This document shows positions 13,553 to 59,161 of a DNA stretch of 64,000 nt, piece after piece. Each line of letters starts with the position of its first letter. Position 1 is the first letter of the stretch. Both the position numbers and the translations under genes were made by a program. Source of the DNA: an uncultured Gammaproteobacteria bacterium (GTDB lineage: Bacteria > Patescibacteriota > Patescibacteriia > Magasanikbacterales > GWA2-37-8); the NCBI GenBank assembly GCA_964355175.1, contig CAYHBZ010000001.1, forward strand, positions 368,523 to 432,522, written 5' to 3'. The notes below the pieces were generated by a model that saw only the letters and a program-made list of their open reading frames with translations, was not told the DNA's origin and ran no database searches.

Positions 13553-14170
13553 TTATTTTTTTGTTAAAGCTTTTGTCGGGGTTTTACCTACAACTTTGAC
13601 ACTATCCCCCACCTTTAAGAATTTATAAATTTTTTCCGCGTCCGCGTAGCCAATATTTACACAACCATGACTCATCGGACGAATGCCAAACTGCTTATGC
13701 CAATAAGCACCGTGCAAATAATAAGTTTTTTTGAATTCCAAATTCCATTTGGTGTTTGGCAAATCATAGCCCGGTCCTTTGTAATGTACCACCGGCACTT
13801 TTCGTAAAATTTTGAATTCACCATTTGGAGTGTCCGTACCTCTTTTACCACTAGATACCGGCACTTTGCCAACTTCTACCCCGTTAAAAAAATACTTCAT
13901 CTGCTGGGTATTGAGATCCACTTCTACGCTACGCTTCGCATCTTTATTCCTATCTCCAACCAAAGGATTAAAACCATTAGCCACCTCGATACCATCGGGA
14001 TAGCCATCTTTATCGGTATCAACACTAGCGAGATCAGTTTCTAATTTTAGTTCGATCTCATCCGACAAACCATCGCTGTCGGTATCAATAATTTCAGCTG
14101 CCCTGACTTGAGAAGCTGAAAATAAAAGTATAAAGAATATTAAGGAGAAAATTTCTTTTCTATAAAGCAT
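13553..14170 (-). CDS. L,D-transpeptidase (YkuD-domain) with N-terminal calcium-binding DxDxDG repeats and a signal peptide
   Basis: Catalytic motif …LHGAYWHKQFGIRPMSHGCVNIG…. Two DTDSDGLSDEIE / DTDKDGYPDGIE thrombospondin-type-3-like repeats. Signal peptide present. Confidence 0.8.
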   Translation of the reverse strand: MLYRKEIFSLIFFILLFSASQVRAAEIIDTDSDGLSDEIELKLETDLASVDTDKDGYPDGIEVANGFNPLVGDRNKDAKRSVEVDLNTQQMKYFFNGVEVGKVPVSSGKRGTDTPNGEFKILRKVPVVHYKGPGYDLPNTKWNLEFKKTYYLHGAYWHKQFGIRPMSHGCVNIGYADAEKIYKFLKVGDSVKVVGKTPTKALTKK

Positions 14171-15190: not shown

Positions 15191-15796
15191 CTATTTTCTT
15201 GCAATAATGAGTTGATTAATCCAAATATCTTTTTCGTAAACTAAGACATTTTTTTCTACCTGGAAGGCTAAACTTTCTAGTTCTTCAACAATTTTTTCTG
15301 GACGATGATAAAAAGATTCAATTTTTATTTTTCCTTCTTGGGTCTGCACTTCCGGTGGTTCTTTTTGATTGATATTGGAAACCGCCAAAATTCCTCCGTC
15401 TTTTAATACCCTGCAAGCTTCATCAAAAAAAGTTTTTGGATCTCTCAGATGCACTATCAAAAATGCAGCGGTAACAATATCAAAAGTACTGTCAGCAAAC
15501 GGCAAATTTTCGGCATCACCAATAGTGGTTTCAATTTTTTTATCTTTATTTTTCAAAACTTTCAACATCTGCTCCGACACATCCAAAGCTGTCACTTGCG
15601 CTCCCGACTTGGACAATAGCACCGATAGCCGACCTGTCCCCGCTCCCACATCAAGCACTTTTTTACTTTTTAAATCGCCTAAAAGCGGCAAAAATTTATT
15701 TTGTTCAAAACTATTTAAATACTTTTCTTTTTTATCGTATGAAGCCGCGGCCAAATCATAGCCCGGAGCGGATTTTAAAATTTTTATTTTTGACAT
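15191..15796 (-). CDS. class I SAM-dependent methyltransferase (Methyltransf_11-like)
   Basis: Motif I VLDVGAGTGRLS, and a post-I acidic residue. 201 aa. Overlaps the 3' end of the ComEC gene by 41 nt. Confidence 0.75.
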   Translation of the reverse strand: MSKIKILKSAPGYDLAAASYDKKEKYLNSFEQNKFLPLLGDLKSKKVLDVGAGTGRLSVLLSKSGAQVTALDVSEQMLKVLKNKDKKIETTIGDAENLPFADSTFDIVTAAFLIVHLRDPKTFFDEACRVLKDGGILAVSNINQKEPPEVQTQEGKIKIESFYHRPEKIVEELESLAFQVEKNVLVYEKDIWINQLIIARK

Positions 15797-17279
15797 ATAT
15801 AACTAATAAAACATAGGTAACCACCAATGCCCAAAGCGGCAGGGCAAACTCCACACTCGCCCACGGCCAGGAGGCCAAATAATGCGCGGTTATTATAACA
15901 TACTTTAAACCAAAATAAGTAGGGAAAGCCATTAACAAGCCCAATGGAAAAAATATATAGCTGAGCAGAATGGATAAAAAAGAAAACAACATCAAAAAAG
16001 GCACGATCCACAAAATTAAGATATTGGCCAGCGGAGCTATCAGTGATAGCTGACCAAACTGAAATAAAATTAAAGGCAAAGTGGCAATAATGGCCGACAA
16101 AGTAGTGGATAATGATTCCAATATAATATACAAAAATTTATTATCGGTTTCTATTCCAAAGTTATTTAAAATTGGCGAGATATATATCAGGCCTAGGGTG
16201 GACAAAAATGACAGCTGAAAACCGGCATCCCAAATTAACACAAACGGATTCATAAGCATCATCACCGCGGCGGTAAATACCAAAACATTTCCCACTCGCG
16301 ATTGTCGGCCTAGCTGAGTGGCCAACAAAACAATAATACCCATAATCCCCGCTCTCACTACCGAAGCGGAAGCGCCGGTAAAAAATACAAACAAAATTAT
16401 TCCACCTATTACCACAAAAAATGCTTTGCGTCGATCTAGGCTCAGCCGGATCAAAATATTCATCAGCACGCAGGCAATGATACTAATATTATATCCAGAA
16501 ACCGCCACGATGTGAGTGAGACCAACTCGACTAAAATCCTCGGTCACTTCCGGCGTAAATCCTGACCGCGCGCCGTATAGTAATCCGGCGGCCAAAGAAC
16601 TTTGCGGTTCCGACCATAATTCATTGACCCGATACTGCAATCTCTGCTTTAGATCAAAAAAATTTATATATAATTTATGTAACACGGGCATATCAGTTTC
16701 CAATTTTTCTATCCGGACGCGCGTACCGCATAGCGACCACACCCCGTTGCGCGCCAAATATTTATCATAATTTAAAAAACCATCTTTCCCCTCAGGTGTT
16801 TTCAAATCACAGCCCACTCTCACCGCATCACCAAATTTAAAATCCTCATAAAGCGGTAAATTTATCAACACACCGCCGGAAACTTTTTTTGCTCCCAGCT
16901 GGGTGACATTTACAATCGCCTGCTTGCTGGATATTTTTTCATTTATCTCCTGCGATATAGTACCGGTGAAAATTTCATACTGACCGTTATAATAACTCAG
17001 CTCATTCATTGTGACGGACGGCACGGCCAGATAAAAACGCAACCCGCCCAAGATAAAAAACAACGCACACAACAAAACAAAACGAAATTTTAAATTCGCC
17101 CAATAAAAAAATAATAAAATAACCACCGACAAAAAACCGCAGTAAATAAAAAACTGCCAATCTTTATTGATAGTTTGAGACGAAAAAATTCCTACTCCCA
17201 AAATAAAACAAAAACAGAACGCCAAAAATGTTCTGCTTCTAGAATAATAAATTTTTTCTTCCCCTCCTAACATATACAC
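15756..17279 (-). CDS. comEC: ComEC/Rec2 DNA-uptake channel protein (DUF4131 + competence domain), lacking the MBL domain
   Basis: 507 aa polytopic membrane protein with ComEC competence-domain sequence (…GLTHIVAVSGYNISII…). The start codon overlaps the response-regulator stop by 1 nt. Confidence 0.75.
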   Translation of the reverse strand: MYMLGGEEKIYYSRSRTFLAFCFCFILGVGIFSSQTINKDWQFFIYCGFLSVVILLFFYWANLKFRFVLLCALFFILGGLRFYLAVPSVTMNELSYYNGQYEIFTGTISQEINEKISSKQAIVNVTQLGAKKVSGGVLINLPLYEDFKFGDAVRVGCDLKTPEGKDGFLNYDKYLARNGVWSLCGTRVRIEKLETDMPVLHKLYINFFDLKQRLQYRVNELWSEPQSSLAAGLLYGARSGFTPEVTEDFSRVGLTHIVAVSGYNISIIACVLMNILIRLSLDRRKAFFVVIGGIILFVFFTGASASVVRAGIMGIIVLLATQLGRQSRVGNVLVFTAAVMMLMNPFVLIWDAGFQLSFLSTLGLIYISPILNNFGIETDNKFLYIILESLSTTLSAIIATLPLILFQFGQLSLIAPLANILILWIVPFLMLFSFLSILLSYIFFPLGLLMAFPTYFGLKYVIITAHYLASWPWASVEFALPLWALVVTYVLLVIYVKNKNFKIRSGL

Positions 17280-17656
17280 TAACTGCCGAGTTTGGCTTTA
17301 ATTTTGGCTACTATGGAAGAAAGATTATGATTGGTTTTGATGAGATAGTCATAATTACCGTGCTTAATCAATTTCAGAATTTCATGATCATCATTTATAT
17401 TACTAAGCACGATTACCGGCACGTTCTTGCCCCACTTATTTTTGTGCAGGGCGTTGAGCACCTCCGTACCGTTCATTTTTGGCATAAATATATCAAGCAG
17501 AATCAAATCTGGCTTCTCTTCTAAGGCCATTTTCAATCCGTCTTCCCCGTTGGCGGCTTGCAATACAGTGAATTTTTCACGGGTCAATTTATCGGCCAAA
17601 ATTTTACGCGTCGCGATTTCATTTTCAATAATTAAAATTTTTTTATTGTCTATCAT
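17279..17656 (-). CDS. response regulator, stand-alone receiver (CheY-like) domain
   Basis: 125 aa, …ILIIENEIATRKIL…DLILLDIFMPKMNGTEVL…. 4-nt overlap with the kinase gene. Confidence 0.8.
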   Translation of the reverse strand: MIDNKKILIIENEIATRKILADKLTREKFTVLQAANGEDGLKMALEEKPDLILLDIFMPKMNGTEVLNALHKNKWGKNVPVIVLSNINDDHEILKLIKHGNYDYLIKTNHNLSSIVAKIKAKLGS

Positions 17657-18885
17657 ATAATGATAGTTTTCTTTTTAATCACCGGTTTAATTGGAAAAGA
17701 TACAAAAAAAGTAGTGCCTTTGTCCACCTCGGACTCAAACCAGATTTTGCCTTGTAATTTTTCTACTATTGATTTCACCATATACAAACCCAGACCAGTA
17801 CCGGTAATTTCTTTGGCCATCACATTTTCCGCGCGATATAGTTTGGTAAAAATTTTCTCTTGAGAGGCTTTGGGAATACCGTAACCATTGTCGGCCACAC
17901 TCAGAGTAAATTCCTTTTTACCGCTTGGAATTACTTTGATATCAACTTTTCCTCCCGACGGGGTATATTTTATAGCGTTGGTTATAAGATTTTGCAATAA
18001 CATCTTGAGCATTTTGATATCGGTTTCTACACCTTTTAGTCCATCACTGACTGTAGAATTAATTATCATCTTTTTATCTTCAATCGTCGGCAAGTTGGCT
18101 TTTAATTCATCTTCTATGAAACTTTTTAAATCCACCGGTACCAACTGTACCGCCAAAGTACCCAAATCCAAACGAGAAACATTCAACAAATCATTGACCA
18201 TTTCTACCATGCGCTGATTACCCTGATAAACTTCTTTAAGATAATTTTTCTGATCTTCATTAATAGGACCAGCATCACCGGACATCAACATTTCCACATA
18301 CCAATTGATGGTGGACAGCGGCGTACGCAATTGATGAGAAGCTAAAAATACAAATTCGCTTTTTATTCTGTCAATTTCTTTTTCCTGAGTAATATCACGA
18401 AAAACTTCTATCGCGCCGATGATTTCGTCTTTCAAAAAGATTGGCATCGCGCTGATATATACCGCGAAATCCATTTTGTCTTTTTTTACAAAATGATAAT
18501 TGGTGCTAATAATTTTTTTACGCTTGGTGAGACACAGATGCAGAGGATGCTTTTCTATTGGCACATGTTTACCGGTTTCATCTGACAACAGTGAAATATC
18601 GCCCAATCTTTGACCAATCATACTATCGTCCCAGGCAATCATTTCCTGCGCGGCTTTATTTACAAAAATAATCGCTCCGTTTTTATCCGTAGCCACTACC
18701 CCATCGCCAATACTACCAAGCATAGCCTCTTCACGCGCTTTGTCTATTTTAGCGATTAATTCTTTTTTCTTTAATTCTTTAAGCAACGCGCGTGAGCGTC
18801 GGCCAAAATAAAAATATAAGGCTAAAATCAAAACTATAAATAGCCATTCTATAAACATCATTGAATTTACAGTGGTGAAAAACAT
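17653..18885 (-). CDS. sensor histidine kinase (TM - PAS - HisKA - HATPase_c)
   Basis: H-box FLASHQLRTPLSTI. PAS-like GDGVVATDKNGAIIFVNKAA. ATPase G-boxes GTGLGLYMV. Confidence 0.85.
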   Translation of the reverse strand: MFFTTVNSMMFIEWLFIVLILALYFYFGRRSRALLKELKKKELIAKIDKAREEAMLGSIGDGVVATDKNGAIIFVNKAAQEMIAWDDSMIGQRLGDISLLSDETGKHVPIEKHPLHLCLTKRKKIISTNYHFVKKDKMDFAVYISAMPIFLKDEIIGAIEVFRDITQEKEIDRIKSEFVFLASHQLRTPLSTINWYVEMLMSGDAGPINEDQKNYLKEVYQGNQRMVEMVNDLLNVSRLDLGTLAVQLVPVDLKSFIEDELKANLPTIEDKKMIINSTVSDGLKGVETDIKMLKMLLQNLITNAIKYTPSGGKVDIKVIPSGKKEFTLSVADNGYGIPKASQEKIFTKLYRAENVMAKEITGTGLGLYMVKSIVEKLQGKIWFESEVDKGTTFFVSFPIKPVIKKKTIII

Positions 18886-18891
18886 AATTTT

Positions 18892-20520
18892 TTATCTGGT
18901 AATACTAATTGCTTCAGCGTTTTCCGCACTACAAGCCTGAACATTTATTCTACCACCGGCTGTTTTTTGAATGGCGTAATATGTCTGGCTGTTACTGCCA
19001 GTTTTAGGATCAAACGGTAGAGAGGTGATATAAGTCGGAGCTAGCGCGGACGAAAGATCCAAACAAGCGGCGGCAGTGGTGGATGATGGAGAAGATCCGC
19101 CGCTTGAACCACTAGTACTCCCACTAATTATAGCACTTTTTAGCTCAGGAGTTAAGGCGGAATCGACGGTGTCTAGAAATGCTTTGTATTGGAAATATCG
19201 ATTATTAGAAATATTGGCGAGGGATACTGATGGAGTCGAATTGGAAGTATTGGAAGCTTCAGAATAATAGGTGTTGGCAGTGCCATCAGGACCAAAAAAT
19301 GTACCGTCAGAACAGTTGGCTTGAGCGCAGGATCTTGCTTGATATTTCAAACTAAGGGCGCCGCGTTTATACATATCACTAACTTCTGTGACAGAAAGAG
19401 CGCGAGAAAATACTGCTACCTCATCAATTAAACCTTGAAAAAAACGATTACTACTGTAGGTCGATCCAATTCTAGGATTGTGTAAAATTATATTATAATT
19501 ATTCGAAGTGGTTTCAGATTCTTTGACACCGTTTACATACACTGTAGCTTTACTGGTAGCATTATTTAAAGTATAAACTAAATGATACCACTGATTGAGA
19601 CTAACAGCCGTAGTAGAAAATACAAACGCACCGTTATTTAAAGCACACTGGACCAAATTGCTAGTATTATTTAATTGACAATGTAAATCACCGCCTGCCC
19701 AACCTTGGCTACCAAACAAACCGCGCATTTCACCTGATACTCCAGTGGATTTAAACCACATGGCAACAGAAAAATTAGTAAAATTACTATTATTTAAAGG
19801 AATTCCAATAAAATCTCCCGACCCGTCAAAACTTCCGCCGGTTCCAAACTTTGCACTGGCCGCCATAGCAGGACAACCATTGCCGCTACAGGTACCATTA
19901 TTATTGTTTCCGGAATTGTCGACAAAACTAGTCGCACCGCTGCTTTCGTCCAAATGCATCAATAAGACATTGCCATTCATACTCACATTCCCCGTTGGAT
20001 AGCCGGTCTCTGCAGCACCGCTGTTTGACAAGGCTTTACCTGTCGGCCTATTTGGCACCCAGGCAAGCGTGGACCAAGCGGCGCTGGCAGCAGCATCTTT
20101 AATGTCTGAGGTATAGGAACCACCAGTCTGTCCAACCGAAAGATTTAATAAAGAATTATTTGTGTTGTAAGTAGTATTACTATATGTACCGGCGAAAGTT
20201 GATTGACTATTATCAGTCATGGATACAGGACCGCCACTGCTGGTAGCACTACTGCCACCACAAACAACATCACATCCGGAATTGGCAGTGCCCAGCATTC
20301 TGAGATTGGTGTCGATGTTATTCGGAAACAAACCATCATTATCGAGAGAGTACTGATAAATAGCATTCAATATAGTACTGAGATCGCTTTTTCTGGCGGC
20401 GTTTCTCACTTGTGCCAATTGTTTTCCAGGATTAATGGCAACAATAACTATGCCGGCTAATATCGCAATAGCGGCTACGACTAACAGAATTTCTAATAAT
20501 GTAAAAGCTTTTTTATTCAC
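18892..20520 (-). CDS. type IV pilin-like protein with central LamG_3 (concanavalin-A-like) domain, paralog 1
   Basis: Class III signal peptide and conserved pilin helix (KKAFTLLEILLVVAAIAILAGIVIVAINP). Central region with the LamG_3 signature (…NQWYHLVYT…YVNGV…GLIDEVAVFSRALSVTEV). C-terminal module shared with the other paralogs. Confidence 0.75.
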   Translation of the reverse strand: MNKKAFTLLEILLVVAAIAILAGIVIVAINPGKQLAQVRNAARKSDLSTILNAIYQYSLDNDGLFPNNIDTNLRMLGTANSGCDVVCGGSSATSSGGPVSMTDNSQSTFAGTYSNTTYNTNNSLLNLSVGQTGGSYTSDIKDAAASAAWSTLAWVPNRPTGKALSNSGAAETGYPTGNVSMNGNVLLMHLDESSGATSFVDNSGNNNNGTCSGNGCPAMAASAKFGTGGSFDGSGDFIGIPLNNSNFTNFSVAMWFKSTGVSGEMRGLFGSQGWAGGDLHCQLNNTSNLVQCALNNGAFVFSTTAVSLNQWYHLVYTLNNATSKATVYVNGVKESETTSNNYNIILHNPRIGSTYSSNRFFQGLIDEVAVFSRALSVTEVSDMYKRGALSLKYQARSCAQANCSDGTFFGPDGTANTYYSEASNTSNSTPSVSLANISNNRYFQYKAFLDTVDSALTPELKSAIISGSTSGSSGGSSPSSTTAAACLDLSSALAPTYITSLPFDPKTGSNSQTYYAIQKTAGGRINVQACSAENAEAISITR

Positions 20521-20528
20521 ACAAAAAA

Positions 20529-22172
20529 TTATTTTGTTACAGTTATTGCTTCTCCGTTTTCAGGAGAACACGACTGCACATTAATACGACCGGCGGCGGT
20601 TTTTTTCACAGCGTAATAAGTTTTGGCACTATCGCCCACCTTTGGATCAAACGGAATAGAAGTGATATAGGTTGGCGCCAGCGCGGAAGAAATATCCAAA
20701 CAAGCGGCCGCTGTAGACGACGAAGCACCCACACTGCCTTGCACCACAGTCTGCGTACCGGCCAGATCCACACTCTTTAATTCCGGCGTCATTGATGTAG
20801 CAGGAGAATCAAAAAAAGTTTTATACTGAAAATATTGATTACTACCAATATTACTAAGTGATAAGGACGGAGTGGAAATAGATGTATTACTACTTTCTGA
20901 ATAATAAGTATTGACTGTATTGTCCGGACCAATAAATGTACCGTCTGAACAATTGGCTTGAGCGCAGCTTCGGACTTGGTATTTCAATGATAGGGCGCCG
21001 CGTTTGTACATATCAGTTACTTCTGTAGCTGACATAGAACGATTAAAAATAATTGCCTCATCCACCAAGCCATTATATTGGCCAAATCCCAACTGAATTG
21101 GGGTAGTGTTATTCCTAATACTAGTAAAGGCAAAATTCTTTGTAGACAACAAAACTCCGTTTAAATAAATTTTTCCTACACCATTATCAAAAGTAAAAAT
21201 TATATGTTGCCAGGCATTATCACCTATCCAAGTACCGTCCTGATATTCATAAGTAGTGCCAGCTGGATTAACTAAAAATACTCGCCAATAAACATTGCCG
21301 CTAATAGAGAAAGATCCATTACTAGGATTAAAACCAGCACCTTTTCCAATAATATGTCCGTAGCTTGGCCAACTGCTGGTAGCCACACTATTAAACCAAG
21401 CACCGAATGTAAGTTGATTAGAAAAAGTTAAGCTGGTACTATTTGGAACTGTTATTGGATTAGTACCGGCTTTAAAATTAGCGGCATTACCGAACTTACC
21501 AGATATCATGCTTGGACAGTTTGGATTAACACAATTTCCATTATTATTTTTACCTGAAGTATCTAAAAAAGCGGTGGCACCACTGCTTTCATCTAAATGC
21601 AATAATAATAAATTACCGCTCATATTGGCATTACCGGTGGGATAACCAGTTTCGGCAGCACTATTATTTGGCAAGGACTTTCCTGTAGGACGATTTGGCA
21701 CCCACGCCAAGGTCGTCCAACTAGTGACACCGGCTGAATCTTTTATGTTTGAAGTATATGTACCGGAAGTCTTATTAACCGAAAGGCTCAGCAAACTTGT
21801 ACCATTATTATAATTAGTGTTGGAAAATGTTCCGGAAAAAGTGGATTGGCTATTGTCGGTAATAGCGACTGGCACGGTTTGAGAAGTAGAACTACCGGCT
21901 ACTGGACCACAACTCACTCCACATCCTGATCCACTGGTACCAAGCATTCTCAAATTGGTATCGATAGATCCAGGAAAGGCCCCACTATTATCGAGCGAAT
22001 ACTGATAGATGGAATTTAAAATAGCACTAGCGTCTGATTGCCTAGCGGCATTCCTAGAGGCCGCTAATTGCTTACCTGGATTTATGGCAACAATCACAAT
22101 ACCAGCCAACACCGCAATTGCGGCCACGACTAAAAGAATTTCTAATAATGTAAACCCAGAATTTTTTTTCAT
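20529..22172 (-). CDS. type IV pilin-like protein with LamG_3 domain, paralog 2
   Basis: GFTLLEILLVVAAIAVLAGIVIVAINP N-terminus. Divergent LamG-like middle. Conserved C-terminal ~130 aa. Confidence 0.75.
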   Translation of the reverse strand: MKKNSGFTLLEILLVVAAIAVLAGIVIVAINPGKQLAASRNAARQSDASAILNSIYQYSLDNSGAFPGSIDTNLRMLGTSGSGCGVSCGPVAGSSTSQTVPVAITDNSQSTFSGTFSNTNYNNGTSLLSLSVNKTSGTYTSNIKDSAGVTSWTTLAWVPNRPTGKSLPNNSAAETGYPTGNANMSGNLLLLHLDESSGATAFLDTSGKNNNGNCVNPNCPSMISGKFGNAANFKAGTNPITVPNSTSLTFSNQLTFGAWFNSVATSSWPSYGHIIGKGAGFNPSNGSFSISGNVYWRVFLVNPAGTTYEYQDGTWIGDNAWQHIIFTFDNGVGKIYLNGVLLSTKNFAFTSIRNNTTPIQLGFGQYNGLVDEAIIFNRSMSATEVTDMYKRGALSLKYQVRSCAQANCSDGTFIGPDNTVNTYYSESSNTSISTPSLSLSNIGSNQYFQYKTFFDSPATSMTPELKSVDLAGTQTVVQGSVGASSSTAAACLDISSALAPTYITSIPFDPKVGDSAKTYYAVKKTAAGRINVQSCSPENGEAITVTK

Positions 22173-22175
22173 CTT

Positions 22176-23810
22176 CTATTTTGTTAGACTAATGGCCTCG
22201 CCATTCTCCACTGAACAAGCTTGAACATTTATTCTACCGCCAGCTGTTTTTTTTGCAGCATAATATGTTTGGCTGTTGCTACCGGTTTTGGGATCAAATG
22301 GCAGGGATGTAATATAGGTTGGTGCAAGAGCTGACGAAAGATCTAAACAAGCGGCTGCGGTGGTGGATGAAGATCCTCCGCCAGAACCACTAGTACTCCC
22401 ACTAATTACAGCACTTTTTAGCTCAGGAGTTAAGGCAGAATCAGTGGTGTCTAGAAATGCTTTGTATTGGAAATATCGATTGTTGGAAATATTGGTGAGA
22501 GATAGTGATGGAGTGGCGTTGGAAGTGTTGGAAGCTTCGGAATAATAGGTGTTGGTAGTGCCATCAGGACCAAAAAATGTACCGTCAGAACAGTTGGCTT
22601 GAGCGCAGGATCTAGTTTGAAATTTTAGACTTAGAACACCGCGTTTGTAAATGTCTGAGATTTCTGTGGCGGATAGGGATCGGTTGAAGACAGACGCTTC
22701 ATCGATGGTGCCGGTAAAATTATATGCCAAAACACCTGATTCCCCACCACTAAAATCCGTTCCGATATGGGCTACCGCGTTATTAATTCTAGGTTGACCG
22801 GTCTGAGAAGAACTGCCATCCAACACCCCGTTAATATAATATTTTACTGTTGCGCCATCCCAGGTAGCACTAATTAAAGACCATTGATTTAAATTTACTG
22901 CTCCGGTTCCAATATTGGCCGCTCCACCTACCCACAGTTGTATTCTACCGGTATTATTATACAACCCAAACCAATAGGCGGTGGCATGAGCTTTGGCTAT
23001 TACTGTATGATAGGTATGATCAGAAAAAGATGTTGGATAAATCCAAGCACTCCATGTGCCTTGACCCACATCCAAACTATTACTGTCAGCAACATTTAAA
23101 TAGGTGTTATTAAAATTACCAGCTGTACCAAATTTTCCAATTTGACCCATCGTAGGACAGGCGTTACCACTACAAGTCGCATTATTACCACTCCCCGAAC
23201 TATCGGAAAATGTAGTTGCTCCAAGAGCTTCGTTCAAATGTAGAAGTAAAACATTGCCGTTCATATTGATATTGCCGGCTGGATAACCACTTTCAGTAGC
23301 GCTATTATTTGGCAAGGCTTTGTTGGTAGGACGATTTGGGGTCCAAGCAAGAGAAGACCAAGTCGCGCTAGCAGTAGTGTCTTTAATGTCTGAGGTATAG
23401 GTGCCTGAGGTTTGGGACGAAGAAAGGTTTATTAAACTAGTATTGGTGTTGTAAATGGTGTTGGCATATATACCAGCAAAGGTTGATTGGCTATTGTCGG
23501 TGATGGTGAGAGTGTTACCACTCGAGGAACTACTGCTTGCCCCACCGCAGGATACATTACAACCGGAGGCGGCGGTGCCAATCATTTTTAGATTAGTATC
23601 TATATTATTTGGAAATTGTCCATTGTTATCCAAAGAATATTGATAAATTGAATTTAAAATTGCACTAACATCTGATCTTCTAGCAGTGTTCCTGGTAGCC
23701 GCCAGCTGTCTGGCCGGATTTATTGCCACAATCACAATACCGGCCAACACCGCGATCGCGGCCACGACCAAAAGAATTTCTAATAATGTAAAAGCTTTTG
23801 CTTTTTTCAT
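22176..23810 (-). CDS. type IV pilin-like protein with LamG_3 domain, paralog 3
   Basis: KAFTLLEILLVVAAIAVLAGIVIVAINP N-terminus. Divergent middle. C-terminus ~90% identical to paralogs 1 and 5. Confidence 0.75.
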   Translation of the reverse strand: MKKAKAFTLLEILLVVAAIAVLAGIVIVAINPARQLAATRNTARRSDVSAILNSIYQYSLDNNGQFPNNIDTNLKMIGTAASGCNVSCGGASSSSSSGNTLTITDNSQSTFAGIYANTIYNTNTSLINLSSSQTSGTYTSDIKDTTASATWSSLAWTPNRPTNKALPNNSATESGYPAGNINMNGNVLLLHLNEALGATTFSDSSGSGNNATCSGNACPTMGQIGKFGTAGNFNNTYLNVADSNSLDVGQGTWSAWIYPTSFSDHTYHTVIAKAHATAYWFGLYNNTGRIQLWVGGAANIGTGAVNLNQWSLISATWDGATVKYYINGVLDGSSSQTGQPRINNAVAHIGTDFSGGESGVLAYNFTGTIDEASVFNRSLSATEISDIYKRGVLSLKFQTRSCAQANCSDGTFFGPDGTTNTYYSEASNTSNATPSLSLTNISNNRYFQYKAFLDTTDSALTPELKSAVISGSTSGSGGGSSSTTAAACLDLSSALAPTYITSLPFDPKTGSNSQTYYAAKKTAGGRINVQACSVENGEAISLTK

Positions 23811-23821
23811 TATTTTTTTTA

Positions 23822-24268
23822 TTATCTAGTAACACTGATAGATGCGCTATTTTCGGCAGATGGAGCGCTGACAGTAATGCGTCCATTGGCAGTCTGTAAA
23901 ATTTTATAACCGGTACCATTGGTACTGGCGGCGGTTGGATCGGTTGGAATAGCCGTCAAATAAACTTCGTTTAAAGTAAGTGCGGACAAATCCACTAGGC
24001 CAGCACAACTACCACCGGTCTTACAAACTTCTACCGCGTTCTGAGTAATACCAGATGGCAATGCGCCTTTATTATCAATTGAATATTGATAAACAGCGTT
24101 TAAAATCGTGTTCACATTTACTCTTCTTTGCGCGTTACGAGTATCGGCCAATTGTTTGCCTGGATTGATAGCAATAATTACGATACCGGCCAAAATGGCG
24201 ATAGCGGCCACCACCAATAAAATTTCTAAAAGGGTAAAACCCTTTTTATTTAAATTTTCCATATTCAT
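23822..24268 (-). CDS. short type IV pilin (148 aa) lacking the LamG insert
   Basis: KKGFTLLEILLVVAAIAILAGIVIIAINP prepilin N-terminus. Its C-terminal beta-domain (…TANGRITVSAPSAENSASISVTR) is homologous to the C-terminal module of the large paralogs. Confidence 0.75.
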   Translation of the reverse strand: MNMENLNKKGFTLLEILLVVAAIAILAGIVIIAINPGKQLADTRNAQRRVNVNTILNAVYQYSIDNKGALPSGITQNAVEVCKTGGSCAGLVDLSALTLNEVYLTAIPTDPTAASTNGTGYKILQTANGRITVSAPSAENSASISVTR

Positions 24269-24310
24269 ATTATGAATAATTAATAAATTAATTTTTTAAA
24301 TTAGATATAT

Positions 24311-25996
24311 TTATCTTGTCACACTTATAACTTCAGAATTTTCCGCGCTACAGGCCTGAACATTTATTCTGCCACCAGCGGTCTTTTGAATGGCATAATA
24401 TGTCTGGCTGTTACTACCAGTTTTGGGATCAAATGGTAATGAAGTGATATAAGTTGGAGTCAATGCCGAAGAAAGATTCAAACAAGCGGCAGCGGTGGTG
24501 GACGAAGAAGATCCTCCACTAGAACCACTGGTACTCCCGCTAATTATAACACTTTTTAACTCCGGAGTTAAGGCGGAATCGACGGTATCTAGAAATCCTT
24601 TATATTGGAAATATCGATTATTGGAAATATTAGCGAGAGACAGTGACGGAATAGTATTGGAGGTGTTGGAAGCTTCGGAATAATAGGTATTGGCAGTGCC
24701 GTCGGGGCCGGCGAATGTACCGTCGGAGCAGTTGGCTTGGACACAACTGCGGACTTGGTATTTTAGACTAAGGGCGCCGCGTTTGTAATGGTCGGCAACT
24801 TCGGTTGCAGAAAGGGCGCGGTTATAAAGAGCAAATTCATCCAATGTACCACTAAAAAAATAATTTGTTCCGGCTCCGCGGTCGCCAAAATAAATTGGCT
24901 GATTACCAAAATTATTGGTATTATTGGCATTCAGACCACTGTTTGTGCCGGTAGTTTTTGATCCATTTATATAGGTAGAGACTTCGTTGGTTGGCAAACT
25001 TTTATCAAACACTACCACCACATGATACCAAACATTGGTCTGTAAAATATTATCAGCCACCCAAACAGAATAATACACATTGCCTCGTACGCCGGCTCCA
25101 ATTTTACCGTTAGGATTGATCGATACAACGTAACCATCGGAAACATTATTATAATTTGTAGAAGCTTCAAAAATTTGTTCACCGACAGCTGGTGTCAAGG
25201 AAGCAGGTTTAAACCAAAAAGATACCGATATTTTGTTGGTAGCCGAGACATCTACCGGACCAGTCTTGGCATAGTCATCTACCCCATCAAACTTTACACC
25301 TGTGCCAAAAATTCCACTTGATTGATAAGTTAATCCATTAAAAGTAGCGGCATTATTACCACTGCCAGATAAATCTTGCCAAGCTCCGCTCGCTTCATCC
25401 AGGTGATACAAAAGTACATCCCCACTCATGTTAGCATTCCCACTTGGATAACCGGTTTCAGTGGCACCAGAGTTTGGCAATGGTTTATTGGTAGGACGAT
25501 TTGGTATCCAAGCCAATGTAGACCAAGTGGCACTGGCGGTGGCGTCTTTAATGTCTGAAGTATACGTACCAGGGGTTTGGTTGGCAGAGAGATTTAAGAG
25601 ATTATTATTTGTATTGTAAGTGGTGTTGCTGTAAGTACCGGCAAAAGTGGATTGACTATTATCGGTAATGGATACAGGACCACCACTGCTGGTGGCACTA
25701 CTGGCACCACAAGAAACATTACAACCGGAATTTGATGTACCGAGCATCCTTAGGTTAGTATCGATGGTGTTTGGGACCAACCCAGTATTATCTATCGCGT
25801 ATTGATAAATTGCGTTTAAAATTGCGCTCACATCACTACGACGAGCAGCATTTCTTGTTTGGGCTAATTGTTTGGCCGGATTTATTGCAACCACAACTAT
25901 ACCGGCTAAAATGGCAATAGCGGCCACTACCAGAAGAATTTCTAGCAAAGTGAAACCAGTTTTAATTTTATAACATTTATGCTCCATAATTACCAA
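24311..25996 (-). CDS. type IV pilin-like protein with LamG_3 domain, paralog 4 (561 aa)
   Basis: TGFTLLEILLVVAAIAILAGIVVVAINP N-terminus. LamG-like middle (…FDGVDDY…WYHVVVVFD…YINGS…). Conserved C-terminus. Confidence 0.75.
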   Translation of the reverse strand: MVIMEHKCYKIKTGFTLLEILLVVAAIAILAGIVVVAINPAKQLAQTRNAARRSDVSAILNAIYQYAIDNTGLVPNTIDTNLRMLGTSNSGCNVSCGASSATSSGGPVSITDNSQSTFAGTYSNTTYNTNNNLLNLSANQTPGTYTSDIKDATASATWSTLAWIPNRPTNKPLPNSGATETGYPSGNANMSGDVLLYHLDEASGAWQDLSGSGNNAATFNGLTYQSSGIFGTGVKFDGVDDYAKTGPVDVSATNKISVSFWFKPASLTPAVGEQIFEASTNYNNVSDGYVVSINPNGKIGAGVRGNVYYSVWVADNILQTNVWYHVVVVFDKSLPTNEVSTYINGSKTTGTNSGLNANNTNNFGNQPIYFGDRGAGTNYFFSGTLDEFALYNRALSATEVADHYKRGALSLKYQVRSCVQANCSDGTFAGPDGTANTYYSEASNTSNTIPSLSLANISNNRYFQYKGFLDTVDSALTPELKSVIISGSTSGSSGGSSSSTTAAACLNLSSALTPTYITSLPFDPKTGSNSQTYYAIQKTAGGRINVQACSAENSEVISVTR

Positions 25997-26025: not shown

Positions 26026-26442
26026 TTAAAAATTTGAAACTTCCTGCCAAGAATCCACTACTATGACCGGCGCAATCTGACTCACAGATACTTTTACCTT
26101 ACGAACTACCGATCCAATAGTAGCGCTAGATTGGATCACGCGACTTTGTTCTGAATTTATTATAATTTCATAACTACAGGTATCGCCGTCAATCTGTACA
26201 CTCCCTGCTCCGTTAATTATGGAGCAAAGTTGAACATGGTTGAGCGCCGATTCTGCGCAAGCATTAGCCAAAGTTTTGGCACGCGCGGACTGCTCAAGCA
26301 AAAAACTATTTTGATAGGAATATAGACCGGACAAAATCAAATACAAGGCCACGGCCACACCAAAAGCACCGACGATTAATACGCCGATAAGTACCGCGAA
26401 TCCGGAATTATTTTTTGTACTAGCGGATATTGGCAGTCGCAT
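26026..26442 (-). CDS. pilus-associated small membrane protein (minor-pilin-like / PilX-like)
   Basis: N-terminal hydrophobic segment after NNSGFAVLIGVLIVGA. Lacks the E5. Sits in the minor pilin block. Confidence 0.4.
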   Translation of the reverse strand: MRLPISASTKNNSGFAVLIGVLIVGAFGVAVALYLILSGLYSYQNSFLLEQSARAKTLANACAESALNHVQLCSIINGAGSVQIDGDTCSYEIIINSEQSRVIQSSATIGSVVRKVKVSVSQIAPVIVVDSWQEVSNF

Positions 26443-27004
26443 AAAAAGTTTGGGTATAGCTATATTGATTTAGCCCAGATGAATTTTTATAATTTAGATC
26501 AAATTGAATTTTAATGGAATCGTGAGAGGCAGCTCCTAAATTTTTTACCTGCCAGTTGGAAATTTGAATCTTGGAGGGATTTAAAAAATAATCTTTACTA
26601 TTTTTATTCAAAAATAAAGTGGTGCTGACTACGCTGAGCTGTTCAGACTGGCCATTGATATCCTGAAACTGCAATACGACGGCGGTATTGCCTACGGCCG
26701 GAGCCGTAATAATTTTCGCGTTATTAATCTCTTGGGTAATAATCTGAATAATCTGGGCACCTTGTTGCTCTACCATACTCATACTCTGATTTTTTACGCG
26801 TGATTGAATAAGCAGAGCCACCAAAGCCACAATGGACAACAAAATAACACTGGCTACAAAAACATACAGTAGTAACTCCAGCAATGTAAATCCTTGATTG
26901 TCATTTTGAATGCTCTGCATAAATATTTTATGGACAAAACTCCGTGCTGGTACCGGTACTGGTAGCAGTACGCCAATCAGTAAATAAAGTGGAAAAAGAT
27001 ACAT
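26420..27004 (-). CDS. prepilin-type N-terminal cleavage/methylation domain protein (minor pilin)
   Basis: QGFTLLELLLYVFVASVILLSIVAL class III signal peptide. Confidence 0.6.
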   Translation of the reverse strand: MYLFPLYLLIGVLLPVPVPARSFVHKIFMQSIQNDNQGFTLLELLLYVFVASVILLSIVALVALLIQSRVKNQSMSMVEQQGAQIIQIITQEINNAKIITAPAVGNTAVVLQFQDINGQSEQLSVVSTTLFLNKNSKDYFLNPSKIQISNWQVKNLGAASHDSIKIQFDLNYKNSSGLNQYSYTQTFYATANIR

Positions 27005-27386
27005 TAATAGTATTGGAACCGGTTTGCTTCCATTCTACTTGAGATGTTACTTTTTTTATTTGAGAATTCACATCGGCAATACTAATAGTGCGCTTAAAAA
27101 TATCCGTGACATCCGGCTGAGCCGCCAGTGTCCACTGACCACTACTTGCCAGACCAAAATTCCCTGGTGTTAAATTCGCAAAATTATGATCACGAATACT
27201 GCGCGCCGCTTCGAGCCCTTCCTGAGCCAGCGAAATAGCATGGTTTCTTTGTCCGGCACGGATGGTACTTTGCTGACCATAAGTCAAAATACCCAAAAAA
27301 ATCAAAGACAACAACGCTAGAAGTCCGCTGGCCAGGACTATTTCCACCAGAGAAAAACCTTGATAATTTTTTATATTTTTTATCAT
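26928..27386 (-). CDS. prepilin-type minor pilin
   Basis: QGFSLVEIVLASGLLALLSL class III signal peptide. Confidence 0.6.
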   Translation of the reverse strand: MIKNIKNYQGFSLVEIVLASGLLALLSLIFLGILTYGQQSTIRAGQRNHAISLAQEGLEAARSIRDHNFANLTPGNFGLASSGQWTLAAQPDVTDIFKRTISIADVNSQIKKVTSQVEWKQTGSNTINVSFSTLFTDWRTATSTGTSTEFCP

Positions 27387-27865
27387 AGGCCAATAATACC
27401 AAGTTCGCTAACAGAAACATTCTTTTTACGACCATCCTGGTGAGTTATAATTATAGTACCAGACGAGGTAGTCCATCCGAAAAATTTACTAAACACGACT
27501 TCATTTAAACCGGATAATTTTATAGTGGCGGTCATTTTATAATTTTCATCAAAATTTTGATCGCGTCCGGCAAAGTTATTTCCTTTAAAAAGAGTAGCCG
27601 TACTACTCACCATCTCCACTCCCCAATCAGAATCCCCATCCACGGCCTGGGCGCGAATTTGTCCGCGATGCAAAACATCCGATACGGTAGTAGCCGCAAT
27701 TGACACCTCATTCTCTGCCTGCAAAGACAGATACATAGGAGCGGCAATGCCCGCCAATAGGCTTATCAAAGCCACTGATAACAATAATTCCAAAAGTGTA
27801 AAGCCATTTTTTTGTGAAAATGGCTTTGGAGCATATATGATTTTTTTTACCAAAAAAAATTTCAT
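27383..27865 (-). CDS. prepilin-type minor pilin (GspH/FimT-like)
   Basis: NGFTLLELLLSVALISLLAGIAAPMY class III signal peptide. Confidence 0.6.
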   Translation of the reverse strand: MKFFLVKKIIYAPKPFSQKNGFTLLELLLSVALISLLAGIAAPMYLSLQAENEVSIAATTVSDVLHRGQIRAQAVDGDSDWGVEMVSSTATLFKGNNFAGRDQNFDENYKMTATIKLSGLNEVVFSKFFGWTTSSGTIIITHQDGRKKNVSVSELGIIGL

Positions 27866-27866
27866 A

Positions 27867-29435
27867 TTACGGACTAAGAGTAGAGCCGGTTTTTACATAT
27901 TGAGCACTGACCCACCCAAATTGATCCGGGCCTAAAATTATTTGATACCAACCGTCTTGTCGCTGTAAAAATTTAAATTGTTCGCCTACCAGTGCTTTGC
28001 GTATAAGCTCAGATTTAGAGGAAGAAGCCATGCGAATATTTACATATCCCAAAGAAGTGGAAGCCACCTCAAGCATATCCGGACCAAGCAAACTAACTTC
28101 GGGTGGAGGTAACATCGGAGAAGGGACGGTGGAACTGGTCGATACTGATGTACTGGAAACTGTGCTAGTAGGAGCTCCTTTAGGTCCAATAATTATTACT
28201 GAGCTGGTAGACATGGTGCTAGTGCTAATAATGGCACCAGCAACTACCGGAGACACAGCGCTAACCGGAGCAGACTGGGAAGAAGAACCGGACTGGCTAG
28301 GACCCTCATCATTTTTATTACTCAAACCACCCACCAAGCTATATATTGGCAAAATTACTGCCAAGGCTACTGCCACCACACCAAGCCAAACTATCACGAG
28401 CAACAAAGGCTCCAAAATGACGCTGAGATTTTTGGTTGTTAATTCGGTTTTAGCTTCAAAAGTTTCGCTAATATTTATAAATATTTTGGAAAGCGCACCC
28501 GATCTCTCGCCCGCCCCGATTAAACTCTGAATCGGAGTAGGGATATATTTTTTTATTTTTTTGTTGGAAGCAAAACTTTGTTCAAAAGACTTTCCCTCTT
28601 CTATCTGATCGTGCAAATAATTATAAATTTTCCCGTAAGACCTCAAGGTGCTGGAATCTTTTAGGGATGACAGAGCTTGCAACACGGGCAAACCAGAATT
28701 TAGCAATGTGCCCATGATATATCCAAATCTGGCCAACTCCGCTTCGCGGATTAAATTTTTGATACCGGGAATTAAAAACAGTAGCCACTGACCGATGAAT
28801 TTGGTTTTGGAAAAAACAAATAAAAAATATAGTATTAAACACAAACCAACCAAAAAAGACGGTACAACTATTGCTCCATATTCAGACAAAAAGGCACCAA
28901 AGCTCATCAACAGCCTGGTGACCAAAGGTAATTTGAGATTCAGCTGACCAAAAACACTGGCCAGGCGCGGCAAAATAAACCAAGCAATACCAATACCCAC
29001 CACCATCGCTATGGCCATCACAAATACCGGATACATCATGGCGGCGCGAATTTTGGATTGAAATGATCGGCTCTTGGATTGTTGCGTCACCACGACAGCC
29101 AAACTCTCATGCAATCTACCACTGTCTTCACCGATCTTAACTAGTGCAATAATATGGGCCGGTAAAATTTCAGTTTTACCAAGCGCGATAGACAGGCTAA
29201 AACCAGCACTGATATCTTCTACCAAATTATCAATGATATTTAGTAACTTGGTAGATTTTACTTCGGTTTTTATCGCTTGCAAGGACTCAATAATATCCAT
29301 GCCGGAAGCCAAAAGCATGGCCAAATTTTCAATAAAATATTCTTTTTCTTCATTAAAACCAAAACTAAAAGCCAGAATTGATGGTTTTTTAGGTTTCTCA
29401 TCTTTTTGATTGTCTATTTTTTTATCCTCGCTCAT
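27867..29435 (-). CDS. pilC: type IV pilus platform protein PilC/GspF fused to a C-terminal S/T/P-rich linker and SH3b-like domain
   Basis: Two T2SSF repeats with three TM helices. After the last TM comes a ~90-aa Ser/Thr/Pro low-complexity tract, then GYVNIRMASSSKSELIRKALVGEQFKFLQRQDGWYQIILGPDQFGWVSAQYV, which matches the bacterial SH3 pattern. Confidence 0.85.
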   Translation of the reverse strand: MSEDKKIDNQKDEKPKKPSILAFSFGFNEEKEYFIENLAMLLASGMDIIESLQAIKTEVKSTKLLNIIDNLVEDISAGFSLSIALGKTEILPAHIIALVKIGEDSGRLHESLAVVVTQQSKSRSFQSKIRAAMMYPVFVMAIAMVVGIGIAWFILPRLASVFGQLNLKLPLVTRLLMSFGAFLSEYGAIVVPSFLVGLCLILYFLFVFSKTKFIGQWLLFLIPGIKNLIREAELARFGYIMGTLLNSGLPVLQALSSLKDSSTLRSYGKIYNYLHDQIEEGKSFEQSFASNKKIKKYIPTPIQSLIGAGERSGALSKIFINISETFEAKTELTTKNLSVILEPLLLVIVWLGVVAVALAVILPIYSLVGGLSNKNDEGPSQSGSSSQSAPVSAVSPVVAGAIISTSTMSTSSVIIIGPKGAPTSTVSSTSVSTSSTVPSPMLPPPEVSLLGPDMLEVASTSLGYVNIRMASSSKSELIRKALVGEQFKFLQRQDGWYQIILGPDQFGWVSAQYVKTGSTLSP

Positions 29436-29445
29436 GGGTAAAAAA

Positions 29446-31098
29446 TTAAAATTTTGGCGCCTCCGCTACACGCAATAATTCTTCCAGAGTAGTAACACCA
29501 CTTTTTACTTTATCAATACCATCTTCAAATAAAGTGACTGAACCTTGCGCGCGGGCCACTTTCCAAATCTGGGCGGTGGAAGGATTTTTCAAAATAAGTT
29601 CCTCTAGCTCGGGAGTGACTTCAATAAATTCATAAATAGCAGTACGCCCCTTAAAACCGGTATGACCACAGCTGTCACATCCTTTTCCTTGATAGAGCAC
29701 GATATGTTTTCCGGTAAAATATTTAGAAGCATCTTCGGAAATATTTTTCTTGATTTCTTCCTTGGATGAGTTCACGCTATAGCGACATTTATCACAAATC
29801 TTGCGCACCAAACGCTGAGCAATAAGTACCTCAAGAGTAGAGGCCAATAAAAATGGCTCAATACCCATATCCAACAAACGCGGCACCGCCGTAGCGGCAT
29901 CATTGGCGTGAAAGGTAGACAATAATAAATGTCCGGTCAAAGCCGCGTTCACCGCAGTCTCGGCCGTTTCCTGATCACGAATTTCACCTACCAAAATAAT
30001 ATCCGGATCCTGACGCACAATCGAGCGCAAACCTTTGGCAAAAGTAAGATTTGTCTGGGCATTTACCTGGATCTGATTGATGCCCGGCATTTTATATTCT
30101 ACCGGATCTTCAATGGTGGTAATATTTACATCCGGACTATTTAATAATTTTAGCAAAGCGTAGAGCGAAGTAGTTTTACCGGAACCGGTCGGACCGGTCA
30201 CCAGAATCATACCAAACGGTTTGTTGGAAGCGGTGAGCAATAATTTTTGATCATGTTCAGACAAACCCAAATCAGCAAAAGAAAAACTGCGTACATATTG
30301 AGACAACAAACGAATTACCACCTTTTCACCATTTAAGGTAGGCAAAATGGAAATACGCATATCAAGCGAATTATCCCCTTTTACCTGACGAATAGCGCCG
30401 TCTTGCGCGGAAAAATGCTCATCAATAGGCAACATAGCCTGCACTTTAATACGATTCAAAATATTTCCATAGTATTCTTTTGGAATACGACCAGCTTCTT
30501 GCATTACACCATCAATACGAAAACGGACAATTACTTCTTTGTCCTGAGGCTCAATATGAATATCGGACGCGCGATAAGCCGAAGCATCGTCTACAATCTG
30601 CTCAATAATCTCCGGCGCGATGCGTTTTTGTTGTTTGATAATATCGCCAAAACGAGTGGCTAGAGTTTTGAGATAATGAATAAAGGTCGCTTCAACATCT
30701 TCGGCAAAAGCAAAGGCCAAAGATATTTTTTTACCTTTAAAAATTGTTTTTAATTTTTTGGTTAATTCAGGATTGGTGGGATTATCGGTCGCGATAATTA
30801 AGTCATCGCCATTTTGTTGAAATACTACGGCTGTAAATTCTTTGGCCGTGTCTTCCGGTAATAACTTCACCTGCTCAGCCGAAGGCTGATTGGTAGTCAG
30901 ATTGGCGTAGCTTATTTTATCGGATTCAGCAATGGCTTGACCCAACAAATCTTTATTGATAATTTCCTGCGACAATAAATAATCCAAAAATTTACCTTCC
31001 TCCCCTTTGGTGGCGGCCTCCGCTTTTTTGACATCCTCATCGGTTATATAATTACCATCCAGCAAAACTTGTTTTATTTTTTTGTCTTCAATTTTCAT
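29446..31098 (-). CDS. pilB: type IV pilus assembly ATPase PilB/GspE
   Basis: Walker A GPTGSGKTT. Asp/His boxes. Tetracysteine motif CDKC…CDSCGHTG. 550 aa. Confidence 0.9.
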   Translation of the reverse strand: MKIEDKKIKQVLLDGNYITDEDVKKAEAATKGEEGKFLDYLLSQEIINKDLLGQAIAESDKISYANLTTNQPSAEQVKLLPEDTAKEFTAVVFQQNGDDLIIATDNPTNPELTKKLKTIFKGKKISLAFAFAEDVEATFIHYLKTLATRFGDIIKQQKRIAPEIIEQIVDDASAYRASDIHIEPQDKEVIVRFRIDGVMQEAGRIPKEYYGNILNRIKVQAMLPIDEHFSAQDGAIRQVKGDNSLDMRISILPTLNGEKVVIRLLSQYVRSFSFADLGLSEHDQKLLLTASNKPFGMILVTGPTGSGKTTSLYALLKLLNSPDVNITTIEDPVEYKMPGINQIQVNAQTNLTFAKGLRSIVRQDPDIILVGEIRDQETAETAVNAALTGHLLLSTFHANDAATAVPRLLDMGIEPFLLASTLEVLIAQRLVRKICDKCRYSVNSSKEEIKKNISEDASKYFTGKHIVLYQGKGCDSCGHTGFKGRTAIYEFIEVTPELEELILKNPSTAQIWKVARAQGSVTLFEDGIDKVKSGVTTLEELLRVAEAPKF

Positions 31099-31104
31099 AC
31101 TTAC

Positions 31105-31488
31105 TTAATCGGCTATCAAAGTAGCCACGACATAATCCACTATTTTATTTATAGATGTGTCGGATTTTACAAAATACCATTTGGCTCCAAGCAACTTCGC
31201 TTTCTGAGCATCGTCGTCTTGGCCCAAATTGGACGCGATAATTACCGGTGTATTATCTTTTTTTTCTTTTAAAGATTTCAAAACTTCAAAGCCATCCATC
31301 TTTGGCATCATCAAATCAAGTAAAATCAGATCAAATTTTTCTTTTTTAATCGCTTCCCACGCGGCCAGACCATCGTTTACTACTTTGGTTTCAAATCCGC
31401 TGTGATTTAATTTGAGCTCCAGCGCTCTGGCCATTGGTTTTTCGTCTTCGGCAATTAAAATTTTCTTTAATTTCTTTTCAGCTACCAT
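31105..31488 (-). CDS. response regulator, stand-alone receiver domain (first gene of the pilus cluster)
   Basis: 127 aa, …KILIAEDEKPMARAL…DLILLDLMMPKMDGFEVL…. Confidence 0.8.
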   Translation of the reverse strand: MVAEKKLKKILIAEDEKPMARALELKLNHSGFETKVVNDGLAAWEAIKKEKFDLILLDLMMPKMDGFEVLKSLKEKKDNTPVIIASNLGQDDDAQKAKLLGAKWYFVKSDTSINKIVDYVVATLIAD

Positions 31489-59138: not shown

Positions 59139-59161
59139 TTTTTTATAAATAATTTATATTT

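Follow-up and report, generated by a model that had tools for sequence, protein, structure and literature searches.

In a 64,000-nucleotide stretch of DNA from a member of the Candidate Phyla Radiation (CPR, or Patescibacteria), referred to below as the window (positions 368,523 to 432,522 of contig CAYHBZ010000001.1, assembly GCA_964355175.1), the platform protein of a type IV pilus machine, PilC, does not end after its third transmembrane (TM) helix but continues into a flexible linker rich in serine, threonine and proline and then into an SH3b domain predicted to lie outside the membrane. The protein belongs to the PilC/GspF platform family: it has the T2SSF repeats and the three TM helices, and its gene has PilB and prepilin genes as neighbours. 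The most likely function of the added domain would be to tether the platform to peptidoglycan, a proposal to which we give about an even chance and in which both the ligand and the anchoring or positioning role are suggested by sequence comparison and structural modelling.

Architecture of the extended PilC

The PilC gene forms one uninterrupted reading frame of 522 codons, which can be divided as follows (aa, amino acids; K+R, lysine plus arginine; ORF, open reading frame; AF2, AlphaFold2; pLDDT, predicted local distance difference test score).

27867..29435, minus strand: whole gene, PilC/GspF platform plus Ser/Thr/Pro linker plus C-terminal SH3b domain, 522 aa plus stop (ORF list, Pfam)
29040..29435, minus strand: N-terminal cytoplasmic region, residues 1-132, K+R 13 %, a helical bundle in the AF2 model with pLDDT >90 from about residue 30
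28965..29039, minus strand: TM helix 1, residues ~133-157, Kyte-Doolittle maximum 2.72
28812..28880, minus strand: TM helix 2, residues ~186-208, Kyte-Doolittle maximum 2.72
28419..28811, minus strand: second cytoplasmic domain, residues 209-339, presumed site of the second T2SSF stretch
28332..28418, minus strand: TM helix 3, residues ~340-368, Kyte-Doolittle maximum 3.22, sequence LEPLLLVIVWLGVVAVALAVILPIYSLVGG
28080..28325, minus strand: predicted extracytoplasmic disordered linker, residues 371-452, about half Ser/Thr/Pro (composition and AF2)
27888..28079, minus strand: SH3b (SH3_3) domain, residues 453-516 (Pfam, PDB profile match, AF2 and Foldseek)

The T2SSF family (PF00482) matches the protein in two stretches with 153.3 bits against a Pfam cut-off of 25.2 (E 3.8e-45); the first stretch, Pfam residues 34-156, lies mostly in the N-terminal region and extends into TM helix 1. 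The Thermus PilC structure 2whn aligns with residues 233-335, and the Myxococcus xanthus PilC (PDB 3jc8, 417 aa) aligns with residues 33-371 (E 4.7e-30), up to its own residue 416. Since this second alignment ends at residue 371, a canonical PilC stops exactly where the extension starts. TM helix 3, the last element of the common core, is also the most conserved segment of PilC, with many invariant or near-invariant columns. In the AF2 model of the full-length protein, the core (residues 27-368) is predicted with high confidence, residues 371-446 have pLDDT values mostly <50 and residues 454-516 rise again to >90, folding into a beta domain of seven strands. A first-pass annotation of positions 27867-28300, equivalent to PilC residues ~379-522, had proposed a PilC extended past TM helix 3 by a Ser/Thr/Pro linker and an SH3b-like domain, and this architecture is borne out by Pfam, hydropathy, AF2 and the 3jc8 alignment. 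The sizes given there have to be adjusted: the linker has some 82-84 aa rather than ~90, and the folded domain ~63 aa rather than ~55.

PilC/GspF proteins have three TM domains with the N-terminus inside, the C-terminus outside and only a few C-terminal residues on the outer side (PMC4471445), a short canonical ending that had been assumed from the start and that 3jc8 illustrates. In the window PilC, the 15 residues that precede and the 15 that follow TM helices 1, 2 and 3 contain 4/1, 1/2 and 2/1 K+R, respectively, in weak agreement with this N-in/C-out arrangement. K+R content is 13 % in both large PilC domains versus 2 % in the linker, where these residues number only 2 out of 82. By analogy with the published topology of the family, the linker and the SH3b domain would thus be exposed on the outer face of the membrane.

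That the tail is a genuine SH3b domain of the SH3_3 type is indicated both by its hidden Markov model (HMM) score and by its predicted fold. With the full protein as query, Pfam places SH3_3 (PF08239) at residues 464-515 with 36.9 bits, above the gathering cut-off of 27 (E 4.3e-9), while the isolated tail reaches 39.9 bits (E 5e-10); SH3_16 also matches the tail, more weakly and in overlap with SH3_3. AF2 models residues 453-522 with seven strands at a pLDDT of 93 and a predicted template modelling score (pTM) of 0.82. Used as a Foldseek query, this model superimposes on solved SH3b domains with template modelling scores (TM-scores) of 0.73-0.80 and root-mean-square deviations of 1.6-2.8 A, so that the SH3b assignment of the first-pass annotation holds for the HMM and for the fold. 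The best Foldseek matches are clostridial wall proteins, a phage endolysin, NlpC/P60 peptidases and Bacillus subtilis YrvJ; eukaryotic SH3 domains fit much more poorly (TM-score ~0.5). A profile built from 95 PilC-borne SH3 domains gives a concordant picture among PDB sequences, with 4krt, the tandem wall-binding SH3_3 domains of the phage phiSM101 endolysin Psm, at the top (E 8.3e-16), followed by Bacteroides NlpC/P60 dipeptidyl-peptidase VI, clostridial wall hydrolases or surface proteins and an amidase.

When the same SH3 profile was run against 1.8 billion representatives, 21,758 clusters were retrieved at E<=0.001. Partner domains in 59 of the best matches were Amidase_3 (29), NLPC_P60 (9), SLT (1) and PG_binding_1 (1), and GW matched 16 of the 59 proteins, in a sample that is biased to multi-repeat proteins: the 150 matches listed mostly have 2-18 SH3 stretches, and their summed scores outrank single-domain relatives. 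The 74-aa SH3 tail by itself, used as query in a word-index search for homologues, matched just one candidate, a fragment of 54 aa, and was uninformative about other carriers of this SH3 type. Within the PilC-borne domains W496 and W508 are invariant, while L465, N466, R468, Y497, I499, G507 and Y513 are nearly so. Since these residues include the LNVR and GW signature positions of the family, they are uninformative about the ligand.

The linker consists of 50 % Ser, Thr and Pro (84 aa when delimited by the motif at the end of TM helix 3 and the SH3 envelope); residues 385-462, 78 aa in all, contain 21 Ser, 10 Pro, 10 Val and 9 Thr. Across 105 proteins its length ranges from 27 to 232 aa with a median of 49, and its composition is 13.9 % S, 13.7 % T and 12.4 % P, with aromatic residues nearly absent. 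At an estimated 0.35 nm per residue, the maximum reach would be ~10 nm for the shortest linkers (27-28 residues) and ~30 nm for the window PilC. Toward progressively distant homologues, identity falls from 97 to 74 % in the core, from 92 to 42 % in the SH3 domain and from 70 to 9 % in the linker. From the last two declines it follows that the SH3 domain is under constraint and maintained by selection, while the linker is only a spacer of free length. A hydrophobic motif, SSVIIIGPKG (28170-28202, minus strand, residues ~412-422), lies in the middle of the otherwise variable linker in a region of low AF2 confidence; it is kept in the closest relatives sampled (among them P0004, P0007, P0013 and, slightly altered, P0010) and gone in more distant ones. 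The longest linker, of 232 residues, occurs in a protein of 666 aa (P0108) and is rich in charged and polar residues.

Conservation and distribution of the fusion

Exactly the same protein is found on five contigs that come from different assemblies (one has 953,736 bp). Its closest named relatives, 77-85 % identical, come from metagenome-assembled genomes (MAGs) of Candidatus Magasanikbacteria, which places the organism in the Patescibacteria/CPR. An SH3 domain follows PilC in frame in 111 of the 120 best homologues, and in two of these it is present in tandem. Tandem SH3 domains after TM helix 3 (residues ~400-560) were noted in proteins P0034 and P0084 and in a locus labelled Gracilibacteria (L047). 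Genomes were scanned with CPR-specific peptide patterns, taking one genome per GTDB species, and the best 80 of 250 relatives were inspected. PilC and SH3 share one frame in 46 of them, 32 have a complete PilC lacking SH3, one runs off the contig end and one is interrupted. The fusion is thus found in 46 of 78 complete species-level loci, a proportion that describes the most similar 80 loci and not an unbiased sample. The carriers are labelled Magasanik-, Morani-, Nomura-, Doudna-, Jackson-, Uhr- and Buchananbacteria, Gracilibacteria, WWE3, Dojkabacteria and Paceibacteria.

Could the fusion be an artefact in which a frameshift or misassembly joined PilC to a separate downstream SH3 gene? The probability of this is close to nil. 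The one observation in its favour is the interrupted locus (L001; JAPLWP010000046.1, 3001-4563), a Magasanikbacteria MAG in which a PilC-SH3 gene 85 % identical to that of the window has a broken frame and the SH3 end has its own database entry as a 54-aa 'SH3 domain-containing protein' (MCX6779856.1). Low coverage of that MAG with a sequencing error, or a pseudogene, is the probable explanation. Against an artefact stand the continuous ORF, its identical copies on five independent contigs, the same-frame SH3 in the 111 homologues and the 46 loci, and the finding that no free-standing SH3 gene lies within 3 kb of any of the 32 SH3-less loci. A frameshifted fusion, which the first-pass annotation had named as one way in which its reading could fail, is hence not what is seen.

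SH3-less PilCs stop 1-12 residues past TM helix 3, like canonical PilC, apart from one with a 50-residue tail. The gene order is common to SH3-bearing and SH3-less loci: a ~550-aa PilB, PilC, a ~150-aa pilin, a variable pilin, a ~170-aa pilin and a ~140-aa gene. Among the 74 related loci with an upstream ORF of >=100 aa on the same strand, that ORF is PilB in 65. The idea that the two PilC forms are paralogues serving different pilus systems, as in TM7x, was set aside because both occur in the PilB-PilC-pilin order, and they were treated as equivalent loci. Several carriers (L007, L013, L017, L022, L038, L049, L073 and others) come from entries titled 'uncultured Gammaproteobacteria', 'Pseudomonadales', 'Bdellovibrionales' or 'Acidimicrobiales'. 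Their PilCs are 45-63 % identical to the window PilC. Given this CPR-type PilC and the grouping of L007 with Magasanikbacteria in the tree of PilC cores, such titles were treated as labelling or binning errors rather than as carriers outside the CPR.

Proposed function of the SH3b domain

In the mechanism proposed here, the cytoplasmic domains of PilC would engage the PilB ATPase encoded just upstream. Past TM helix 3, outside the membrane, the flexible spacer of ~82 residues would lead to the folded SH3b domain, which would bind the cell's own peptidoglycan and so leash each PilC protomer to the wall; as PilC is probably a dimer or trimer, each machine would have two or three such ties. They would keep it beneath one spot of the wall and give the platform something fixed to brace against as the pilus extends and retracts, which in a single-membrane envelope no secretin complex would provide. 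Peptidoglycan is the most likely ligand because the domain is predicted to lie outside the membrane, its nearest relatives are wall-targeting and the window encodes wall enzymes. The latter are a YkuD L,D-transpeptidase with a TSP3 repeat (13553-14170, minus strand) and a GlmM-like phosphoglucosamine mutase (PGM/PMM; 53523-54887, minus strand), which together are indirect signs that the organism builds peptidoglycan.

CPR bacteria lack PilQ and are thought to have no outer membrane (PMC6744442), which agrees with the monoderm-like envelope envisaged in the first-pass annotation. Its further suggestion, that the domain stands in for PilQ or secretin-type components, is not supported. Secretins form channels in the outer membrane, and where there is no PilQ and presumably no outer membrane, there is no secretin job to fill; moreover, 32 of the 78 loci manage with a PilC lacking SH3, and neither the PilC tail nor the window ORFs scanned with Pfam match Secretin, AMIN or LysM.

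A number of observations also weigh against tethering itself. Not all SH3b domains bind peptidoglycan, and the ligand cannot be read from the sequence. The net charge of the PilC-borne domains ranges from -13 to +5 between lineages, so that there is no conserved electrostatic signature, and peptidoglycan in this organism is deduced from just the two window genes mentioned above. The 32 SH3-less loci share the gene order and have no substitute SH3 nearby, which means that any anchoring must be dispensable or otherwise covered. SH3-bearing and SH3-less forms furthermore interleave in a neighbour-joining tree of PilC cores, albeit a crude, star-like and poorly resolved one from which gains and losses cannot be counted. 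Since so many loci of the same order have neither the domain nor a nearby SH3 gene, the module is, as far as such comparisons tell, a widespread accessory that was lost or gained repeatedly and not an obligatory part of the machine. Finally, in current models PilB turns PilC in 60 degree steps (PMC5424180), and in the system for type II secretion (T2SS) a PulF trimer has been proposed to turn along with the ATPase cycle (PMC10790770). Such rotation is difficult to square with a stable leash to the wall.

Other ligands or roles are each less probable. The domain might bind peptidoglycan for placement or opening of the wall rather than for anchorage, either by recognising new, uncross-linked, septal or polar wall or by recruiting or guiding a hydrolase that lets the pilus pass. 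SH3b domains of the NlpC/P60 type (YkfC family) take part in recognising the ends of stem peptides, the PilC domain is most closely related to the targeting modules of wall hydrolases (amidase, NlpC/P60, endolysin), and a long flexible linker would suit a search-and-dock role. However, the cluster has no hydrolase gene, and in the related loci examined none lies within 3 kb of PilC, which is followed there by pilin-like genes only. By sequence alone this role is inseparable from plain anchoring; we consider it unlikely. A partner within the pilus machine, such as membrane pilins, the filament base or a PilN/PilO-like protein, would make the domain a collar on the outside, or an aid to loading, that travels with PilC. 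This would fit a rotating platform, as no part would be attached to the wall; the SH3 fold serves quite generally as a module for interactions, and the variable net charge is what would be expected of co-evolution alongside fast-evolving pilins (PMC11623550). Nevertheless, the sequence and fold neighbours are overwhelmingly wall-targeting, eukaryotic SH3 domains being the poor fold match already mentioned, and linkers of up to 232 residues are needlessly long for a partner at the membrane surface, which makes such a partner improbable.

Still other candidates are polymers of the envelope other than peptidoglycan, namely an S-layer protein, a secondary wall polysaccharide or a teichoic-acid-like polymer. 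CPR cells may carry an S-layer, and lipoteichoic acid is bound by GW and other SH3-like modules. The GW matches among the related proteins point in this direction, as does the length of the longer linkers, which could reach past the wall, and the CPR envelope is unusual and thought to lack an outer membrane (PMC6744442). As the best-scoring relatives reside on peptidoglycan hydrolases and the shortest linkers, at <=~10 nm, may not cross the wall, we regard these ligands as quite unlikely. It is very improbable that the domain reaches the cell wall of a host and acts as an episymbiont adhesin. The Patescibacteria in cultivation live as episymbionts and contact their hosts with the help of type IV pili (PMC11623550), and SH3b domains can bind foreign walls, as in endolysins. 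Yet the tie to an inner-membrane protein measures 49 residues in the median, too little in most lineages to reach beyond the cell's own envelope, and the cluster already has dedicated lectin-like pilins for outward binding. Peptidoglycan tethering thus stays the preferred function, at the strength given at the outset.

The pilus cluster and its surroundings

The window has ~40 % G+C, and nearly all genes from 98 to ~46,000 are on the minus strand. The pilus cluster and the genes that follow it comprise, in the order of transcription:

31105..31488, minus strand: single-domain response regulator (Response_reg, E 2.4e-25), head of the cluster, directly upstream of PilB
29446..31098, minus strand: PilB-type assembly ATPase, 550 aa (T2SSE, E 1e-125, plus MshEN), immediately upstream of PilC in the same operon
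26026..27865, minus strand: four small genes of 160, 152, 194 and 138 aa directly downstream of PilC (Pfam N_methyl), presumed minor pilins
18892..25996, minus strand: four paralogous pilins of 542-561 aa with a prepilin N-terminus and a Laminin_G_3 (ConA-like lectin) module
23822-24268, minus strand: 148-aa pilin (N_methyl) among the Laminin_G_3 pilins, candidate major pilin
15756-18885, minus strand: PAS histidine kinase, second response regulator and ComEC, directly after the last pilin (Pfam)

The first pilin gene downstream begins 1 nt past the PilC stop. The N-termini of the four small proteins contain GFTLLE, GFSLVE, GFTLLE and GFAVLI; three of these have the prepilin motif, and the fourth is weak. 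They are followed by a 561-aa Laminin_G_3 pilin, the 148-aa pilin and three Laminin_G_3 pilins of ~545 aa. The four large proteins are 57-68 % identical to one another; they seem to be modular pilins that bind glycans, similar to the lectin-like minor pilins reported for TM7x (PMC11623550). Signalling and competence genes bracket the cluster. Among the window ORFs scanned, no PilM/N/O, PilT or PilD gene was found, and an Rfam scan of the window gave no match.

A 424-aa membrane protein with a Wzy_C/O-antigen-ligase domain is encoded at 9112-10386 (minus strand), 17 kb from PilC. The Wzy_C/O-antigen-ligase family includes pilin O-oligosaccharyltransferases, and the protein could bear on the idea, raised in the first-pass annotation, that the linker is O-glycosylated. 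Elsewhere in the window, a 1501-aa ORF (2015-6520, minus strand) has a transglutaminase-like core at residues 287-388 as its sole Pfam match, and the three ORFs downstream of it (98-2002, minus strand) have none. At 57486-60400 (plus strand), between a ClpB-like ATPase and a DsbA/thioredoxin-like protein, lie two ORFs, one of 550 aa that Pfam does not match and one of 412 aa whose sole match, to a PD40 repeat, is below threshold. The thioredoxin-like protein may correspond to the MdbA-like family, which is enriched in CPR (PMC6744442).

Comparison with known systems

The window PilC is like canonical PilC/GspF proteins (PilG, PulF, EpsF; 3jc8, 2whn) in its two T2SSF repeats, its three TM helices and its PilB and pilin neighbours. 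It differs from them in what follows TM helix 3, where the canonical proteins end within a few residues and the window PilC adds ~150 residues predicted to be extracytoplasmic. The tail shares both the Pfam family and the fold with the SH3_3/SH3b domains of hydrolases such as 4krt, 3pvq and 3npf (Bacteroides dipeptidyl-peptidase VI), 2kt8 (CPE1231) and 2krs (CPF_0587), both from Clostridium perfringens, and YrvJ. In hydrolases, however, SH3b delivers a secreted enzyme to the wall, whereas in PilC it is attached to a polytopic membrane protein of a motor and accompanied by no catalytic domain.

The role proposed for the PilC SH3b domain is filled in diderm type IV pili and T2SS by dedicated wall-binding parts, i.e., the AMIN domain of PilQ, the LysM domains of TsaP (cited in PMC4471445) and FimV, and GspA/B. 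AMIN and LysM have other folds and no homology to the PilC SH3b domain; they are found on outer-membrane-associated or separate proteins and never on the platform. A like design, in which a membrane-embedded motor part, a linker and a C-terminal wall-binding domain make up a fixed point, is that of the flagellar stator proteins MotB and PomB. They carry an OmpA-like wall-binding domain on a flexible periplasmic linker. Both protein and fold are unrelated to those considered here, and the tethered part of the flagellum is the stator, whereas PilC is the moving part in current models of the pilus.

The combination of PilC and SH3 is already recorded by automatic Pfam annotation. No description of a PilC-SH3 fusion or of a wall anchor on PilC was found in the literature searched, and neither a survey of CPR protein families (PMC6744442) nor the TM7x pilus study (PMC11623550) mentions an SH3 domain on PilC.

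Implications

Type IV pili are central to host attachment, movement and probably DNA uptake in the ultra-small CPR/Patescibacteria. If the proposed tether is real, it would be the first known case in which PilC itself contacts the wall and would give, for much of the radiation, a simple answer to the question of how the machine is held in place where there is neither an outer membrane nor a secretin.

The consequences would extend to the mechanism of the motor. Provided that wall binding is stable, PilC would not rotate freely, because it would be tied by 27-232 residues to a static wall; this would argue against continuous rotation and would constrain or contradict the model of 60 degree steps. 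Three readings would avoid this conflict: binding may be only transient, the ligand may itself travel with PilC, or these organisms may have a platform that does not rotate. In the most far-reaching version, which we hold to be doubtful but worth stating, the platform would be tied by two or three SH3b leashes and would not rotate continuously in much of the Patescibacteria, so that either the rotary model fails there or PilC acts as a wall-anchored stator; the ring of SH3 domains might in addition mark the route of the pilus across the wall or keep it open, a minimal single-membrane analogue of the outer subcomplex that diderms anchor to their wall. The fusion is a useful natural test of how all motors of type IV filaments work.

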